A DNA stretch of 64,000 bases from Escherichia coli (GTDB lineage: Bacteria; Pseudomonadota; Gammaproteobacteria; Enterobacterales; Enterobacteriaceae). Position numbers and translations under genes: made by a program. Location of the stretch: NCBI RefSeq assembly GCF_048403405.1, contig NZ_CP183129.1, one strand, 5' to 3'. Below, one piece after another: positions 21,692 through 30,886 of this stretch. The notes below the pieces were generated by a model, which was given only the letters and a program-made list of their open reading frames with translations, was not told where the DNA came from and did no database searches. Within the stretch, counting starts at the first letter, position 1. Every line of letters begins with the position of its first letter.

Positions 21692-23226
21692 GGGTGCGGC
21701 TCCGTTTTGCTCGTTACGTCAATGGCATCGATACGGCGGCTGTTGAACAGATTGAATTTGGTATCTGAACCGTGGCAGCCATCACCAAAGGTAAAGCCGC
21801 AGCCATTTTTCTCCGGGAAGGCTTCCCGCGCCAATTCACGATGACTGCTCGGGACCACAAAGCGATCTTCGTAGTTAGCAATCGCCAGATAACGGTACAT
21901 CTCCTGTGCCTGGGCTTCGGTCAGACCGACCTCTTCCAGCGCACGGGTATCGACTTTACCGTCAACGGTTTCAGCACGTTTGTAATGACGCATCGCCAGC
22001 ATACGTTTCAGCGCGCGCAGTACTGGTTTGGTATCACCGGCGGTCAGCAGATTCGCCAGATACTGTACCGGAATACGCAGACTTTCGACGTCTGGCAGAA
22101 TGCCATTGCTGCCCAGTTCACCCGCATCTGCCGCAGACTGAATCGGCGACAGAGGCGGCACGTACCAGACCATCGGCAGTGTGCGATATTCCGGATGCAG
22201 CGGCAGCGCCAGTTTCCATTCCATCGCCATTTTATAAACCGGCGACTGCTGTGCGGCTTCAATAACGCTCAGCGGAATACCGTCTTTAATTGCCTGCTCG
22301 ATGACTTTCGGATCGTTCGGATCGAGGAACACCTCCAGCTGACGCTGGTAGAGATCTTTCTCGTTCTCGGTGCTGGCTGCACGTTCAATGGCGTCCGCAT
22401 CGTACAGCAGCACGCCGAGATAACGGATACGACCGACACAGGTTTCAGAGCACACCGTCGGCTGACCGGCTTCAATACGCGGATAGCAGAAGATGCACTT
22501 CTCAGACTTACCGCTCTTCCAGTTGAAGTAGATTTTTTTGTACGGGCATCCGGTGATGCACATACGCCAGCCACGGCATTTATCCTGGTCGATCAGGACG
22601 ATGCCATCTTCTTCACGCTTGTAAATCGCACCGCTCGGGCAGGTCGCCACACATGCCGGGTTCAGGCAGTGTTCGCACAGGCGCGGCAAATACATCATGA
22701 AGGTGTTTTCGAACTGGCTATACATCGCCTTCTGGATGTTGTCGAAGTTCTTGTCTTTCGCCAGCTTGTCAAACTCACCGCCCAGGTCATCTTCCCAGTT
22801 CGGCCCTTTTTCGATTTTCGCCATCCGTTCGCCGGTAATCAGCGAACGCGGACGGGCAATCGGCTGCGATTTGCTGCCTTCCGGCGCGGTATGCAGGTTC
22901 TGATAATCAAAATCGAACGGCTCGTAATAATCGTCGATACCCGGCAGATGCGGGTTAGCAAAGATTTTACCCAGCAGCATGGCGCGGTTACCCATGCGCG
23001 GCTGCAGTTTGCCGTTGATTTTACGAATCCAGCCGCCTTTGTATTTTTCCTGGTTTTCCCAGTCAGTCGGGAAGCCCTGGCCCGGCTTGGTTTCCACGTT
23101 GTTGAACCACGCGTATTCCACGCCTTCGCGGCTGGTCCAGACGTTTTTACAGGTAACTGAACAGGTGTGGCAGCCGATGCACTTATCGAGATTCAGCACC
23201 ATGCCGACTTGTGAACGAATTTTCAT
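21688..23226 (-). CDS. narH: respiratory nitrate reductase beta subunit (Fe-S)
   Basis: 512 aa with four Cys clusters (CxxCxxCxxxC type). Confidence 0.96.
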   Translation of the reverse strand: MKIRSQVGMVLNLDKCIGCHTCSVTCKNVWTSREGVEYAWFNNVETKPGQGFPTDWENQEKYKGGWIRKINGKLQPRMGNRAMLLGKIFANPHLPGIDDYYEPFDFDYQNLHTAPEGSKSQPIARPRSLITGERMAKIEKGPNWEDDLGGEFDKLAKDKNFDNIQKAMYSQFENTFMMYLPRLCEHCLNPACVATCPSGAIYKREEDGIVLIDQDKCRGWRMCITGCPYKKIYFNWKSGKSEKCIFCYPRIEAGQPTVCSETCVGRIRYLGVLLYDADAIERAASTENEKDLYQRQLEVFLDPNDPKVIEQAIKDGIPLSVIEAAQQSPVYKMAMEWKLALPLHPEYRTLPMVWYVPPLSPIQSAADAGELGSNGILPDVESLRIPVQYLANLLTAGDTKPVLRALKRMLAMRHYKRAETVDGKVDTRALEEVGLTEAQAQEMYRYLAIANYEDRFVVPSSHRELAREAFPEKNGCGFTFGDGCHGSDTKFNLFNSRRIDAIDVTSKTEPHP

Positions 23227-26200
23227 TTTACGCTCTCCTGTACCTGGTCATTGCCTTCGCCATCTAACCAGTCAATGTTCTTCATCTTACGCACTACAAC
23301 AAACTCATCGCGGTTAGAACCTACGGTGCCGTAGTAGTTAAAGCCGTATGCCAGATGGGCATAGCCGCCAATCATATGCGTCGGTTTCGGCGTGATACGG
23401 GTGACCGAGTTATGGATACCACCACGCTGTTGGGTAATTTCCGAACCCGGCAGGTTAACGATACGTTCCTGCGCGTGGTACATCATGGTCATCCCTGCCG
23501 GAACACGCTGGCTGACAACCGCACGGGCAGTCAGAGCACCGTTGCTGTTGAAGACTTCAATCCAGTCGTTATCGGCAATGCCCAGATCTTTGGCATCGGC
23601 TTCACTCAGCCAGACCACCGGACCACCGCGACCTAAAGTCAGCATCAGCAGGTTGTCGCTGTAGGTGGAGTGGATACCCCACTTCTGGTGCGGCGTCAGG
23701 AAGTTGAGCGCTTTTTCCGGGTTGCCGTTGGATTTCTGGCCTATCACTTCTTTCACCGAACGGGTGTCGATCGGCGGACGATAAACCAGCAGGCTTTCAC
23801 CGAAATCACGCATCCACTGGTGATCCTGATACAGCTGCTGACGGCCAGAGAGCGTACGCCACGGGATCAGCTCGTGAACGTTGGTGTAACCGGCGTTGTA
23901 AGAAACGTGTTCATCTTCAAGGCCAGACCAGGTCGGGCTGGAGATGATTTTGCGCGGCTGTGCCTGAATATCGCGGAAGCGAATCTTCTCGTCTTCTTTA
24001 TTCAGCGCCAGATGCGTATGGTCACGACCGGTAAACTCGCTCAGGGCAGCCCAGGCTTTCACGGCTACCTGACCGTTGGTTTCCGGTGCCAGCGTCAGGA
24101 TCATCTCTGCCGCATCAATGGCGGTGTTCAGCATCGGCTGACCTTTCGCCGGACCTTCCGCTTTGGTGTAGTTGAGCTTACGCAGCAGATCCATCTCGCT
24201 CTGGGTGTTCCAGGCAATCCCTTTACCGCCATTACCGATTTTCTCCATCAGCGGGCCGATAGAGGTAAAGCGTTCGTAAGTTGCCGGATAATCGCGCTCT
24301 ACGACCATAATGTGCGGTGCAGTTTTACCTGGGATCAGGTCGCATTCGCCTTTTTTCCAGTCTTTCACATCCAGCGGCTGCGCCAGTTCAGCGGCAGAGT
24401 CGTGCTGGATAGGCAGCGTGACGATGTCAGTTTCTTTACCCAGATGACCAACGCACACTTCGGAGAATTTCTTCGCGATGGCTTTGTAGATTTCCCAGTC
24501 GCTTTTCGCTTCCCAGGCCGGATCGACCGCCGCAGACAGCGGGTGAATAAACGGATGCATATCCGAAGTATTCATGTCGTCTTTTTCGTACCAGGTCGCC
24601 GTCGGCAAAATGATGTCGGAATAGAGACAGGTGCTCGACAGACGGAAGTCCAGCGTCACCACCAGATCCAGCTTGCCTTCCAGACCGTTGTCCTGCCAGT
24701 CCACTTCTTCCGGCTTCACGCCGCCCTGCTGCCCCAGGTCTTTGCCCTGGATACCGTGCTCCGTCCCCAGCAGGTACTTGAGCATAAACTCATGACCTTT
24801 ACCGGAAGAACCGAGCAGGTTAGAACGCCAGATGAACAGGTTACGCGGGTGGTTTTTACCGTTTTCCGGCTGTTCTGCCGCAAAACGGATAGAACCCTCT
24901 TTCAGGGATTTCACGGTGTAATCCACCGGATTCATGCCCGCTTTTTCCGCTTCGCGAGCGATAGTTAGCGGGTTAGTGCCTAACTGCGGCGCAGACGGCA
25001 GCCAGCCCATACGTTCTGCACGGACGTTAAAGTCGATCAGATGTCCGGTATAACGGGATTTATCCGCCATCGGCGACAACAACTCTTCTGCGGTCACGGT
25101 TTCATAACGCCACTGGCTGGAGTGGTTATAGAAGTACGAGGTGCTGTTCATGTGACGCGCCGGACGCTGCCAGTCAAGAGCAAACGCCAGCGGCTGCCAG
25201 CCAGTTTGCGGACGCAGTTTTTCCTGACCTACATAGTGCGCCCAGCCACCACCGCTCTGACCGACACAGCCGCAGAAAATCAGCATGTTGATCAGACCAC
25301 GATAGTTCATATCGAGGTGATACCAGTGGTTCAGCCCCGCACCGACGATAATCATCGAACGACCGTGCGTTTTATCCGCGTTATCGGCAAATTCACGGGC
25401 GATGCGAATAATCTGGCTGCGAGAAACGCCGGTAATCTGCTCGGCCCACGCAGGGGTGTAAGCTTTCACGTCGTCATAACTGGTTGCACAATTAACGTCG
25501 TTCAGGCCACGTTCCAGACCGTAGTTTGCCAGCGTCAGATCATAAACGGTGGTCACCAGGGCGGTGCTGCCATCAGCCAGTTGCAGGCGTTTCACCGGCA
25601 GCTTGTGCAGCAGCACGTTTTCCAGTTCCACTTTGTTGAAGTGTTCCGTGCCGTCGCCACCAAAGTACGGGAAGCCCACCTCAGCGATCTCATCCTGGCT
25701 ACCCAGCAGACTCAGTTGCAGCTCGGTTTCTTCGCCAGTTTTGCCGTCGCGCTGCTCAAGATTCCATTTGCCCTTCTCGCCCCAGCGGAAGCCAATAGAA
25801 CCGTTCGGCGCAACCATTTCGCCATTGGTATTAAAGGCGACAGTTTTCCATTCCGGATTGTTTTCCTGGCCCAGCGCATCCACCAGATCGGCAGCGCGCA
25901 GCATACGACCTGCGGCGTAGTAACCGTCGCGTTCTTCCAGCATCACCAGCATCGGCATGTCGGTGTAGCGACGCACATAGTCGGTGAAATACTGGCTTGG
26001 GTTGTCGAGGTGGAATTCACGCAGCATTACGTGGCCCATCGCCAGCGCCATTGCCGCATCGGTGCCCTGTTTCGGTGCCAGCCACAGATCGCACAGTTTG
26101 GCGATTTCAGCGTAGTCTGGTGTGACGGCAACAGTTTTGGTGCCTTTGTAACGCACTTCAGTAAAGAAGTGAGCATCCGGGGTACGCGTCTGCGGCACGT

Positions 26201-26966
26201 TTGAACCCCAGGCGATGATGTAGCTGGAGTTGTACCAGTCAGCAGATTCCGGTACGTCAGTTTGCTCGCCCCAGGTTTGCGGAGACGCAGGAGGCAGGTC
26301 GCAGTACCAGTCGTAGAAGCTTAAGCAAGTACCGCCAAGCAGCGAGAGATAGCGCGCCCCCGATGCGTAAGAAACCATCGACATTGCCGGAATTGGCGAG
26401 AAACCAGCGACACGGTCCGGGCCGTAGTTTTTGATGGTGTAAACGTTAGATGCGGCGATCAGTTCGTTCACTTCCTGCCAGGAAGAACGAACAAAACCAC
26501 CGCGTCCACGCGCCTGCTTAAAGCTTTTCGCTTTATCGGCGTCTTCAATGATAGAAGCCCATGCCTCAACCGGATCGCTATGCAGCGCCTTCGCTTCACG
26601 CCACATTTTCATCAGGCGTTTGCGCATCATCGGGTATTTCAGGCGGTTGGCACTGTAAAGATACCAGGAGTAGCTGGCACCGCGCGGGCAGCCGCGAGGT
26701 TCATGGTTTGGCAGATCCGGACGGGTACGCGGATAGTCAGTCTGCTGGGTTTCCCAGGTGACCAGACCGTTTTTGACGTAGATTTTCCAGCTGCAGGAGC
26801 CGGTGCAGTTTACCCCGTGGGTAGAGCGGACGATTTTGTCATGCTGCCAACGCTGGCGATATCCATCCTCCCAGTCGCGGTTGGTATTGAGAAGCTGGCC
26901 ATGCCCATCGGCAAAGGTTTCACCCTTCTGTTTGAAGTAGCGAAACCGGTCCAGGAATTTACTCAT
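23223..26966 (-). CDS. narG: respiratory nitrate reductase alpha subunit (molybdopterin)
   Basis: 1247 aa; N-terminal HGVNCTGSCSW Fe-S motif, molybdopterin oxidoreductase domains. Confidence 0.97.
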   Translation of the reverse strand: MSKFLDRFRYFKQKGETFADGHGQLLNTNRDWEDGYRQRWQHDKIVRSTHGVNCTGSCSWKIYVKNGLVTWETQQTDYPRTRPDLPNHEPRGCPRGASYSWYLYSANRLKYPMMRKRLMKMWREAKALHSDPVEAWASIIEDADKAKSFKQARGRGGFVRSSWQEVNELIAASNVYTIKNYGPDRVAGFSPIPAMSMVSYASGARYLSLLGGTCLSFYDWYCDLPPASPQTWGEQTDVPESADWYNSSYIIAWGSNVPQTRTPDAHFFTEVRYKGTKTVAVTPDYAEIAKLCDLWLAPKQGTDAAMALAMGHVMLREFHLDNPSQYFTDYVRRYTDMPMLVMLEERDGYYAAGRMLRAADLVDALGQENNPEWKTVAFNTNGEMVAPNGSIGFRWGEKGKWNLEQRDGKTGEETELQLSLLGSQDEIAEVGFPYFGGDGTEHFNKVELENVLLHKLPVKRLQLADGSTALVTTVYDLTLANYGLERGLNDVNCATSYDDVKAYTPAWAEQITGVSRSQIIRIAREFADNADKTHGRSMIIVGAGLNHWYHLDMNYRGLINMLIFCGCVGQSGGGWAHYVGQEKLRPQTGWQPLAFALDWQRPARHMNSTSYFYNHSSQWRYETVTAEELLSPMADKSRYTGHLIDFNVRAERMGWLPSAPQLGTNPLTIAREAEKAGMNPVDYTVKSLKEGSIRFAAEQPENGKNHPRNLFIWRSNLLGSSGKGHEFMLKYLLGTEHGIQGKDLGQQGGVKPEEVDWQDNGLEGKLDLVVTLDFRLSSTCLYSDIILPTATWYEKDDMNTSDMHPFIHPLSAAVDPAWEAKSDWEIYKAIAKKFSEVCVGHLGKETDIVTLPIQHDSAAELAQPLDVKDWKKGECDLIPGKTAPHIMVVERDYPATYERFTSIGPLMEKIGNGGKGIAWNTQSEMDLLRKLNYTKAEGPAKGQPMLNTAIDAAEMILTLAPETNGQVAVKAWAALSEFTGRDHTHLALNKEDEKIRFRDIQAQPRKIISSPTWSGLEDEHVSYNAGYTNVHELIPWRTLSGRQQLYQDHQWMRDFGESLLVYRPPIDTRSVKEVIGQKSNGNPEKALNFLTPHQKWGIHSTYSDNLLMLTLGRGGPVVWLSEADAKDLGIADNDWIEVFNSNGALTARAVVSQRVPAGMTMMYHAQERIVNLPGSEITQQRGGIHNSVTRITPKPTHMIGGYAHLAYGFNYYGTVGSNRDEFVVVRKMKNIDWLDGEGNDQVQESVK

Positions 26967-27057
26967 CGGTTTTCTCCTGTGGGAGCCTGTCGGCCCTCTG
27001 ATAAATCGACATTGCTAATGTTTAAGGGCAAGGTAACGCTCTGAAACAGCGTGGGAA

Positions 27058-27071
27058 TTGATAACGATCAA
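27058..27071 (-). promoter_or_regulatory. FNR box upstream of narG (ttgat-N4-atcaa)
   Basis: Perfect FNR consensus about 92 nt upstream of the narG start codon; NarL-type heptamers (tacccct, tacccat) further upstream at about 27102 and 27215. Confidence 0.7.
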
Positions 27072-27310
27072 GAGTGATGGGGATGAAAAATAAAGTAAAT
27101 TCCTAAGATACCCCTTTAGGATAATTAACAGCCACCACATAACAGACTGTAAATTAAGACGTTTTATACCTGTAGTTATTTAAACTATTAAGATTTTTAT
27201 GCAGATGGGTATTAAGGAGTATTCCCCATGGGTAACATATTAATGGCTCTTAATGAAATCCGGCGAAATAAGCCACTCACACATAAGTATGTTGTAACTA
27301 AAAGACAGAT

Positions 27311-27336
27311 AAAAAAAGCGCGACATCATGCCGCGC
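27311..27336 (-). terminator. narK intrinsic terminator
   Basis: Minus strand hairpin gcgcggcatgatgtcgcgc followed by TTTTTTT, 25 nt after the narK stop. Confidence 0.7.
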
Positions 27337-27359
27337 AAAGGATAATCAAATATTAAGAT

Positions 27360-28751
27360 TTATTTTTTAGAATGCCGACCATATACCGCCCAGGTAATCA
27401 CTACGCAGGCGATATAGAAAATCAAAAATACTTTCATTGCGCCGACTGGAGAACCCGTTAATGCCAGCGAGCTACCGAACGCTTTCGGGATAAAGAAGCC
27501 ACCAATCGCGCCAATCGCAGAGATGAAACCCAGCGCCGCCGCCGTGTCGGTTGCCGCTTCACGCATCGCACGTTCGTCAGAACCCCCTTCTGCTTTCACG
27601 CGATCCATTGTCAGTTTACGGAAGATCACGGAAATCATCTGGAAAGTGGAACCACTACCCAGCCCAGCTGTCAGGAACAGCGCCAGGAAGACTGCGAAGA
27701 ACGCCATGAAGCTTCCGCCCTGCCCGTCAGTCGGTAAGGTCAGGAACAGCAGGCCGCTGAAAATCGCCATCAGGATAAAGTTCACCAGTGTAACACGAGT
27801 TCCGCCCAGACGGTCAGATAATGCACCACCTGCAGAACGCGCCAGCGCACCAATAAACGGCCCGAAGAAAGCGTATTGCAGAATCTGAACATCCGGGAAC
27901 TGCGTTTTTGACAGCATCGCAAAGCCCGCGGAGAAGCCGATGAAGGAGCCGAAGGTTGCCAGATACAGCAGGCTCATAATCCACAGATGACCCCGTTTGA
28001 GTACCGGCAACTGCTCCTTGATGGAGGCTTTCGAGGTAGCAAGATCGTTCATGCCAAACCACGCCGCAATGGTGAAGATGGCAAGGAACGGCACCCATAC
28101 CCAGGACGCATTCGCCAGATACAGCTCACTCCCATCCGGCTGTTTGACACCCTGGCTACCAAATACTGCGAAAATCGACAGTGATACCACCAGCGGAGCA
28201 ACCAACTGCATGACGCTGACGCCCATGTTGCCCAGACCACCATTCAGGCCCAGCGCGCCACCCTGCTTCTGTTTCGGAAAGAAGAAGCTGATGTTTGCCA
28301 TACTGGATGCGAAGTTCGCGCCAGCAAAGCCGCACAGCAGAGAGATGATGATGAAGACGCTATAAGGCGTGGAGGTATCCTGCACGGCAAAACCCAGCCA
28401 GACGCAAGGAATAATCAGAATACCGGTGCTGAACGCCGTCCAGCGACGACCACCGAAGATAGGAACCATAAAGGAGTATGGAACACGTAATAACGCGCCA
28501 GAAACCGAAGGCAGCGCAGTCAACATAAATAGCTGATCTGTCGTAAAATTAAAACCAACTTTTGGTAAGTTCACCGCAACAGCGCTGAACAACATCCATA
28601 CGCAAAACGCCAGCAGCAGACAGGGAACGGAAATCCACAGGTTGCGGCTGGCAATACGTTGACCGCGTTGTTGCCAGAACGCAGGATCTTCCGGTCGCCA
28701 ATCTGTAATGACAGCTCCAGTAGCCCTTTCGGGGGCGGATGAGTGACTCAT
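27360..28751 (-). CDS. narK: nitrate/nitrite antiporter (MFS)
   Basis: 12-TM MFS protein; start taken at MSHSSAPERATG (third Met of the 465 aa ORF-track entry). Confidence 0.95.
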   Translation of the reverse strand: MSHSSAPERATGAVITDWRPEDPAFWQQRGQRIASRNLWISVPCLLLAFCVWMLFSAVAVNLPKVGFNFTTDQLFMLTALPSVSGALLRVPYSFMVPIFGGRRWTAFSTGILIIPCVWLGFAVQDTSTPYSVFIIISLLCGFAGANFASSMANISFFFPKQKQGGALGLNGGLGNMGVSVMQLVAPLVVSLSIFAVFGSQGVKQPDGSELYLANASWVWVPFLAIFTIAAWFGMNDLATSKASIKEQLPVLKRGHLWIMSLLYLATFGSFIGFSAGFAMLSKTQFPDVQILQYAFFGPFIGALARSAGGALSDRLGGTRVTLVNFILMAIFSGLLFLTLPTDGQGGSFMAFFAVFLALFLTAGLGSGSTFQMISVIFRKLTMDRVKAEGGSDERAMREAATDTAAALGFISAIGAIGGFFIPKAFGSSLALTGSPVGAMKVFLIFYIACVVITWAVYGRHSKK

Positions 28752-28810
28752 AGACACCTCTGATACTCGTTTCGATGTCTGCCACCTTAGTGTCTGTAGC
28801 TAAAGGCAAT

Positions 28811-28824: not shown

Positions 28825-29089
28825 ACGATAAGATAACTTTATCTATCATTGATATTTATCATTACCCATAGTGAGTACAGTGATTTCATAAAAATTATGA
28901 GATTTTTCACGGTGCTGTAGAATCCCTACCCTTACCGATGTAAAGCGACTAACCACACGGCAAATAAGGAGTAACTCTTTCCGGGTATGGGTATACTTCA
29001 GCCAATAGCCGAGAATACTGCCATTCCAGAATGTATCGTCACATTCATTAAGGTTATTGCTCATTTAAAGCCTGAAGGAAGAGGTTTAC

Positions 29090-30886
29090 ATGCTTAAACG
29101 TTGTCTCTCTCCGCTCACCCTGGTTAATCAGGTTGCGCTTATTGTGTTGCTTTCTACTGCTATTGGACTGGCAGGGATGGCAGTTTCTGGCTGGCTGGTG
29201 CAAGGCGTTCAGGGCAGCGCCCATGCGATCAACAAAGCGGGATCGCTGCGCATGCAAAGTTACCGTCTGTTGGCAGCAGTGCCATTAAGCGAGAAAGACA
29301 AGCCCTTAATTAAAGAAATGGAACAAACGGCATTTAGCGCCGAGTTAACCCGAGCAGCAGAACGAGACGGACAACTGGCGCAATTACAGGGTTTACAAGA
29401 TTACTGGCGTAATGAACTGATCCCTACGCTGATGCGTGCACAAAACCGCGAAACGGTGTCAGCGGATGTCAGCCAGTTTGTTGCCGGGCTTGATCAGCTG
29501 GTGTCTGGTTTTGACCGCACCACGGAAATGCGTATTGAGACAGTGGTGCTGGTCCATCGGGTAATGGCGGTATTTATGGCACTTTTACTGGTGTTCACTA
29601 TTATCTGGTTGCGGGCGCGATTGCTACAACCGTGGCGGCAACTGCTGGCAATGGCGAGTGCCGTCAGCCATCGCGATTTTACCCAACGCGCGAACATCAG
29701 CGGGCGCAACGAAATGGCGATGCTTGGAACTGCGTTGAACAATATGTCTGCAGAACTGGCCGAAAGTTATGCCATACTTGAGCAGCGGGTTCAGGAGAAA
29801 ACCGCCGGGCTGGAGCATAAAAATCAGATCCTCTCTTTTTTATGGCAGGCCAACCGCCGATTGCATTCCCGCGCCCCGCTGTGTGAACGCCTGTCACCTG
29901 TACTCAACGGCTTACAGAATTTGACCCTGCTACGTGATATTGAACTGCGGGTGTATGACACTGATGATGAAGAGAATCATCAGGAGTTTACCTGCCAGCC
30001 AGATATGACTTGTGATGATAAAGGCTGCCAGCTCTGCCCGCGCGGCGTATTACCCGTTGGCGATCGCGGCACAACCCTGAAGTGGCGGCTGGCTGACTCT
30101 CATACGCAGTACGGTATTTTGCTGGCGACCCTGCCGCAGGGGCGTCATCTTAGCCATGATCAACAACAACTGGTGGATACCCTGGTTGAACAACTCACCG
30201 CCACGCTGGCGTTGGATCGCCATCAGGAACGTCAGCAACAGTTGATCGTGATGGAAGAGCGTGCCACCATTGCGCGCGAACTGCATGATTCTATTGCCCA
30301 ATCTCTCTCTTGCATGAAGATGCAGGTGAGTTGTTTACAGATGCAGGGCGATGCGCTGCCAGAAAGCAGTCGCGAACTGTTAAGTCAGATCCGTAACGAA
30401 CTGAATGCATCCTGGGCGCAGTTGCGTGAATTGCTCACCACATTCCGTTTGCAGCTCACCGAGCCTGGATTACGTCCGGCGCTGGAGGCGAGTTGCGAAG
30501 AGTACAGCGCCAAATTTGGCTTCCCGGTGAAGCTGAATTATCAATTGCCGCCTCGTCTGGTGCCTTCGCATCAGGCAATCCACTTGTTGCAAATTGCCCG
30601 TGAGGCATTAAGTAACGCCCTCAAACATTCGCAAGCGAGTGAAGTCGTGGTGACGGTGGCGCAAAACGATAATCAGGTCAAACTGACCGTCCAGGATAAC
30701 GGCTGCGGCGTGCCTGAAAATGCCATCCGCAGCAATCACTACGGCATGATAATAATGCGCGACCGTGCGCAAAGTTTACGAGGCGATTGCCGCGTCCGCC
30801 GTCGTGAATCAGGTGGCACCGAAGTGGTGGTCACCTTTATTCCCGAAAAAACTTTCACAGACGTCCAAGGAGATACCCATGAGTAA
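29090..30886 (+). CDS. narX: nitrate/nitrite sensor histidine kinase
   Basis: 598 aa; two TM helices, [14 protein letters not shown]-box, C-terminal ATPase domain. Confidence 0.96.

Follow-up and report, generated by a model that had tools for sequence, protein, structure and literature searches.

Does the 3′ end of narK in Escherichia coli carry only a transcription terminator, or is it also the source of a small regulatory RNA? The question is raised by a 64,000-nucleotide stretch of E. coli DNA (the window), in which an initial annotation had placed a narK 3′UTR with a strong intrinsic terminator, and with it a candidate 3′UTR-derived sRNA of the NarS type, at 27200-27360. The assignment to NarS is upheld by orthology with K-12 b4813, an identical seed and terminator, complementarity to nirC and the presence of FNR boxes. 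The element is the E. coli narS locus, already published and annotated in K-12, here in a compact form without an ERIC repeat. The joint explanation that we consider best, and very probably correct, is that compact NarS is driven by FNR and NarL, released by RNase E, stabilised by Hfq, and blocks translation of nirC.

NarS of Salmonella (STnc2040) is an Hfq-dependent sRNA that RNase E excises from the narK mRNA's 3′ end (Wang et al. 2020, PMC7038943). Its major form, NarS-S, has 63 nt and its precursor, NarS-L, about 110 nt (PMC7038943). The RNase E cleavage motif UCAUUC, for which a UUC-to-CAG mutant is described, lies inside the narK coding sequence, and the seed (nt 21-33), adjoining the terminator on its 5′ side, base-pairs with the Shine-Dalgarno region of nirC, where positions -12 to +1 were footprinted (PMC7038943). 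Function is backed by Salmonella genetics (PMC7038943) and by E. coli RIL-seq, and a RIL-seq-based paper gives K-12 NarS-L as 1279286-1279520 (PMC8175672). The wet-lab basis for NarS comprises Salmonella and K-12, the latter being a carrier of the ERIC allele.

At the orthologous place, K-12 MG1655 annotates the ncRNA narS (b4813, 1279337-1279520), which aligns end to end with the window apart from a 123-nt insert. K-12 has these extra nucleotides after the narK stop codon and before the seed, and the window lacks them; the last narK codons, seed, hairpin and U7 show 100% identity. The seed and terminator likewise match those of other Escherichia species with 100% identity. The 501 nt around the hairpin have 100% identity to several complete E. 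coli genomes, and a match to this stretch was found in 5415 of 5426 complete E. coli genomes. The minus-strand ORF listed at 28757..27360 is narK, although identical E. coli records use the start given in Table 1, where the K-12 ends of NarS are transferred to the window.

Table 1. Features of the narS locus and its surroundings, in window coordinates.
Feature	Position	Strand	Basis or remark
narX	29090..30886	plus	
Second narK promoter FNR box, TTGATATTTATCAT	28849-28862		1 mismatch
narK promoter FNR box, TTGATGTAAATCAA	28811-28824		perfect match
narK coding sequence, parent mRNA of NarS	28751..27360	minus	annotation of identical E. coli records
NarS-L equivalent, 112 nt, presumed precursor reaching into the narK coding sequence	27311..27422	minus	K-12 NarS-L mapped by alignment
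GCAUUC in the last narK codons	27370..27375	minus	corresponds to the RNase E site UCAUUC mapped in Salmonella
NarS-S equivalent, 61 nt, UCUAAAAAAUAAAUCUUAAUAUUUGAUUAUCCUUUGCGCGGCAUGAUGUCGCGCUUUUUUU	27311..27371	minus	K-12 narS ends mapped by alignment
narK stop codon	27362..27360	minus	
Empty ERIC insertion site	27354..27355	minus	alignment with K-12
Seed AUUUGAUUAUCCUUU, NarS nt 21-35	27337..27351	minus	perfect nirC complement
Terminator stem-loop, GCGCGGCATGATGTCGCGC	27336..27318	minus	terminator scan, checked on the sequence
U7 tail (TTTTTTT in DNA)	27317..27311	minus	termination point, presumed Hfq-binding 3′ end
42-aa ORF, AAGGAG-N8-ATG, antisense to the NarS terminator	27228..27356	plus	ORF list
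Heptamers TACCCAT and TACTCCT	27206..27234		inferred narG start about 185-210 nt downstream
Perfect FNR palindrome, TTGATAACGATCAA	27058-27071		narG control DNA
narG	26966..23223	minus	

The interval first proposed for the sRNA needs correction at both ends. Its part 27311..27360 stands, but the RNA continues to 27371, into narK, and 27200..27310 lies downstream of the terminator, within the upstream regulatory region of narG. The two heptamers found there presumably belong to the NarL region known to lie around -200 of narG, the narG start being inferred from the perfect FNR box. Two aspects had gone unnoticed: the start of the RNA inside the coding sequence, and the lack of the 123-nt K-12 repeat in this strain. 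The 5′ end annotated in K-12 maps to U27371, within GCAUUC and 11 nt inside the narK coding sequence. Subtracting the 123-nt insert from the 235 nt of K-12 NarS-L leaves the 112 nt of the window equivalent, in agreement with the ~110 nt of Salmonella NarS-L.

No promoter-like site was predicted on the minus strand within the narK 3′ end, which fits a processed rather than a primary transcript. An independent sRNA promoter was accordingly rejected, in agreement with deletion analysis in Salmonella (PMC7038943). The initial annotation had cautioned that sequence alone cannot show processing, and rightly so: the evidence for processing found here consists of this lack of an internal promoter-like site and of GCAUUC, a short and degenerate match to the RNase E motif that is not kept in all seed-positive genera. 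Upstream of narK, the sequence itself offers two FNR boxes together with NarL-type heptamers. These boxes would drive NarS jointly with narK, consistent with the published FNR/NarL control, which was demonstrated for NarS in Salmonella (PMC7038943).

A GC-rich hairpin followed by U7 does indeed follow narK, as first noticed, but the distance from the stop codon to the base of the stem is 23 nt instead of the 25 nt claimed. The hairpin, spelled GCGCGGCA-UGA-UGUCGCGC on the minus strand, has a stem of 8 bp (6 G-C, 1 G·U and 1 A-U) and a 3-nt loop. A terminator with U7 and an AU-rich stretch upstream is the usual Hfq-binding module. The loose terminator scan was not enriched overall (6 sites against 4.9 expected), and the narK hairpin was clearly its top match. 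The 61-nt RNA folds with -13.6 kcal/mol, compared with -7.6±2.7 for shuffled sequences (z = -2.25, with 6 of 200 shuffles at least as stable). Its predicted fold comprises a single-stranded 5′ region and the terminator, with the seed mostly unpaired apart from weak predicted pairing of GAU at NarS nt 25-27. In other species, a terminator occupies the same position in essentially all of 80 narK loci, and the stem is retained from genus to genus, with A-U and G·U pairs replacing G-C. The GCGCG core of the stem is nearly invariant, and at the sixth pair A-U replaces G-C in 9 sequences and G·U does so in 7. As covariation is modest, with double changes in one of six consensus pairs, support for the hairpin comes mainly from conservation and thermodynamics.

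A search of 26900-27800 against all Rfam families (E ≤ 10) found no family at its gathering threshold. The top scores were L20_leader with 25.6 bits (threshold 58.7), rseX with 24.3 (50) and PrrF with 17.7 (90), all three rejected as spurious on the grounds that the alignment covers only the generic terminator. No NarS model was among the scoring families, and Rfam 15 has no NarS family. With no Rfam family above threshold, and with nothing annotated at the site by PGAP in one non-K-12 record examined, standard pipelines miss NarS.

The match between the seed and nirC was examined with target sequences from K-12 and a derivative of EcN. The K-12 nirC leader ends with ...UAAAGGAUAAUCAAAUGUUU, and the seed is a perfect 15-nt complement of nirC -13 to +2, AAAGGAUAAUCAAAU. 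With one G·U pair included, the pairing can be extended to 18 bp, as far as NarS nt 18 (27354), and the paired nirC stretch, -13 to +5, then spans the footprint of the Salmonella study. The duplex of NarS nt 1-35 with nirC -30 to +20 has an energy of -21.2 kcal/mol, against -6.0±2.1 for shuffled NarS (0 of 2000 as good). This restricted calculation replaces a full-length RNAduplex run of NarS against nirC -60 to +30, which was dropped: its -23.3 kcal/mol was inflated by large loops, and the mononucleotide-shuffle minimum was -26.4. Of 5426 E. coli genomes, 5425 contain the nirC 5′ region. Both K-12 and the EcN-derived strain have an intact site, EcN itself having the compact narS allele. The most divergent nirC leader examined, that of E. 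coli GmF052, has an A-run shortened by one base before GGAUAAUCAAAUG, leaving AAGGAUAAUCAAAUG, and its predicted duplex with NarS is one edge pair shorter.

From the published work on Salmonella and K-12 we infer RNase E processing, Hfq dependence and nirC repression for the compact form as well, and the course of events would be as follows. Under anaerobic conditions with nitrate, FNR and NarL would activate the narK promoter, and transcription would stop at the intrinsic terminator (27336..27311). RNase E would then cut the narK mRNA in its last codons, at or near GCAU/UC (~27371), and also upstream (~27422). The RNA so released, of ~61 nt, would consist of an AU-rich single-stranded 5′ part, the terminator hairpin and the U7 tail, and would be bound and stabilised by Hfq. 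Its seed is predicted to pair with the Shine-Dalgarno and start-codon region of nirC within the nirBDC-cysG mRNA, which would keep the nitrite importer NirC from being translated during NarK synthesis.

The likeness to Salmonella NarS is close. The two RNAs share the parent gene, a position spanning the last codons and the 3′UTR, a similar size (61 nt in the window, 63 nt in Salmonella), a CAUUC motif at the 5′ end, the seed core UUGAUUAUCC directly 5′ of the terminator and U-tail, and the nirC Shine-Dalgarno sequence as predicted target. They differ in that the narK ORF of Salmonella extends for two more codons, with the result that the Salmonella seed begins right after the stop codon, and in the upper stem and loop (GCGCGG-cgttaga-CCGCGC in Salmonella, GCGCGGCA-tga-TGTCGCGC in the window). 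Salmonella NarS has moreover been tested by experiment, whereas the compact E. coli form is known here from sequence. K-12 narS is orthologous and identical in its functional parts, but its NarS-S of 184 nt and NarS-L of 235 nt include the insert, and the window RNA is one-third as long. More distant parallels are CpxQ, SdhX, SroC, MalH and RaiZ, likewise RNase E-processed ("type II") 3′UTR sRNAs in which the parent's terminator doubles as the Hfq module, with the seed just upstream of it (PMC9438474), but which have unrelated parent genes, sequences and targets.

Conservation was assessed in 80 narK loci gathered by NarK protein similarity alone, with one genome per species and without the seed as a selection criterion. 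The exact octamer TGATTATC is present in 51 of these loci, and a further locus, from Cedecea, differs from it at one position; the chance of an exact 8-mer in the 285-nt search region is about 0.4% per locus. In seed-positive loci the octamer always lies 0-5 nt 5′ of a GC-rich hairpin that is followed by a T-run, while the 10 nt upstream of it, the upper stem and the loop are all variable. Seed-positive loci occur in Escherichia, Salmonella, Citrobacter, Enterobacter, Leclercia, Cedecea, Lelliottia, Pseudocitrobacter, Trabulsiella, Huaxiibacter, Silvania, Phytobacter, Kosakonia, Entomohabitans and some Pluralibacter. Alignment of the narK 3′UTRs of E. coli with those of the Salmonella loci in the set (L010 and L018), suggested at the outset as a check, revealed a shared terminator core and seed core, the latter also common to Citrobacter, Enterobacter and others. 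The seed is lacking from 28 loci, in Klebsiella, Raoultella, Kluyvera, Rahnella, Atlantibacter, Intestinirhabdus, two Citrobacter and others, in which the terminator is still present. The hairpin is thus universal and the seed specific to one clade, in agreement with the published distribution of NarS (PMC7038943). A narK-anchored rule, namely TGATTATC within 5 nt 5′ of the narK terminator, would detect NarS across Enterobacteriaceae.

Some departures from this pattern can be noted. In two Citrobacter loci (L013, L023), Atlantibacter (L072) and Intestinirhabdus (L031), a NarS-type terminator is kept and the seed has degenerated, e.g. to ATGTATTACCC or TGTTATCC; these may be cases of recent NarS loss or retargeting. 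The record CACSKA010000003.1, labelled "Chryseobacterium sp. 18061", contains an enterobacterial narK/NarS locus with a 3′UTR identical to that of "Citrobacter sp. 18056" from the same project, and is probably a mislabelled or contaminated assembly.

The presence of the terminator at every narK locus examined, including the 28 seedless ones (Klebsiella, Kluyvera, Raoultella and Rahnella among them), implies that termination is the primary role of the hairpin, whether or not an sRNA is made. It also lends itself to the reading that the hairpin does nothing else, insulating narK from the separately regulated narGHJI, and that any 3′ fragment is a decay intermediate without a regulatory role here. 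We consider this improbable, as it leaves unexplained both an octamer that is invariant next to the hairpin in 51 of 80 species, between variable flanks, and the perfect complementarity over 15 nt to the ribosome-binding site of nirC; the Salmonella genetics (PMC7038943) and E. coli RIL-seq likewise favour function. The roles of terminator and sRNA are not mutually exclusive.

If the conserved block TGATTATCC acted in DNA rather than RNA, it would be a protein-binding site, for example a far-upstream control element of narG. The block is about 330 bp upstream of the presumed narG start, with NarL, IHF and FNR sites dense further downstream, and the ERIC insertions of K-12 and Citrobacter lie on its narK side and never part it from narG. 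However, the complementarity to nirC extends over 15-18 nt, well past the conserved core, and the block always adjoins the terminator on the narK strand, an architecture typical of Hfq-dependent sRNAs. The block also lies beyond the farthest NarL sites known for narG, around -200. A DNA-level binding site is not favoured, and we judge it very improbable. Even less credit, next to none, can be given to the idea that the plus strand encodes a 42-aa protein. The ORF is listed, and a strong AAGGAG Shine-Dalgarno sequence 8 nt before its ATG is visible in the sequence, but a 1-nt indel cuts the ORF to 22 aa in K-12, the start context is kept in no other Escherichia or Salmonella locus, and a search for a promoter-like site found none. 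The ORF was rejected as frameshifted in K-12 and absent from other species. In this narG upstream region, AAGGAG is the reverse complement of TACTCCTT, a heptamer of the NarL type.

Given that NarS is already published and annotated in K-12, its recognition as a compact sRNA in the window adds little. What it contributes, modestly, is a set of corrected coordinates, recognition of the K-12 insert as an ERIC element, and a split of about 55:45 between alleles, of which the window has the compact, Salmonella-like one. The insert, at 555-677 of the K-12 locus L002, matches the ERIC2 primer at 20 of 22 positions and the ERIC1R primer save for a 1-nt deletion; these two primer sequences are found in 233 papers. 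Copies with 88-90% identity exist elsewhere in E. coli genomes, and within the 184-nt RNA the insert folds as a long hairpin that leaves the seed unpaired. By these primer matches, genomic recurrence and fold it is recognised as ERIC. The NarS paper mentions a "170-nt insertion" in K-12, does not name it, makes no mention of a polymorphism and represents the clade by K-12 and Shigella flexneri only (PMC7038943). A literature search on ERIC and narK returned only unrelated typing papers. The 64-kb window has no ERIC copy detectable by blastn with the K-12 and Citrobacter inserts.

Two complementary searches of the 5426 complete E. coli genomes found the ERIC allele in 2457 and the compact junction in 2957 (sum 5414). 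The compact form is most likely ancestral, since the representatives of all other Escherichia species have it. Six Citrobacter species (L014, L016, L019, L022, L024 and L026; ~1894-2025) carry ERIC in the corresponding gap, after the stop codon and before the seed, in the orientation opposite to K-12, which suggests independent insertions at a hotspot. With ERIC in one orientation in 45% of E. coli and in the other in at least six Citrobacter species, we offer as a tentative and rather doubtful proposal that this gap of ~10 nt is a recurrent ERIC landing site, where the change in size might alter the processing, stability or potency of NarS. If so, E. coli lineages would differ in the strength with which nitrate transport cross-represses nitrite import. 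The 61-nt and 184-nt alleles provide a natural experiment on the effect of an ERIC hairpin inside a 3′UTR-derived sRNA on its biogenesis. The E. coli NarS of the literature (~184-235 nt) is the form of the ERIC allele, sampled here in K-12, BL21, W, O104:H4 and E24377A, and most sequenced E. coli, O157:H7 and Nissle among them, carry the 61-nt allele, which resembles the well-studied Salmonella RNA.
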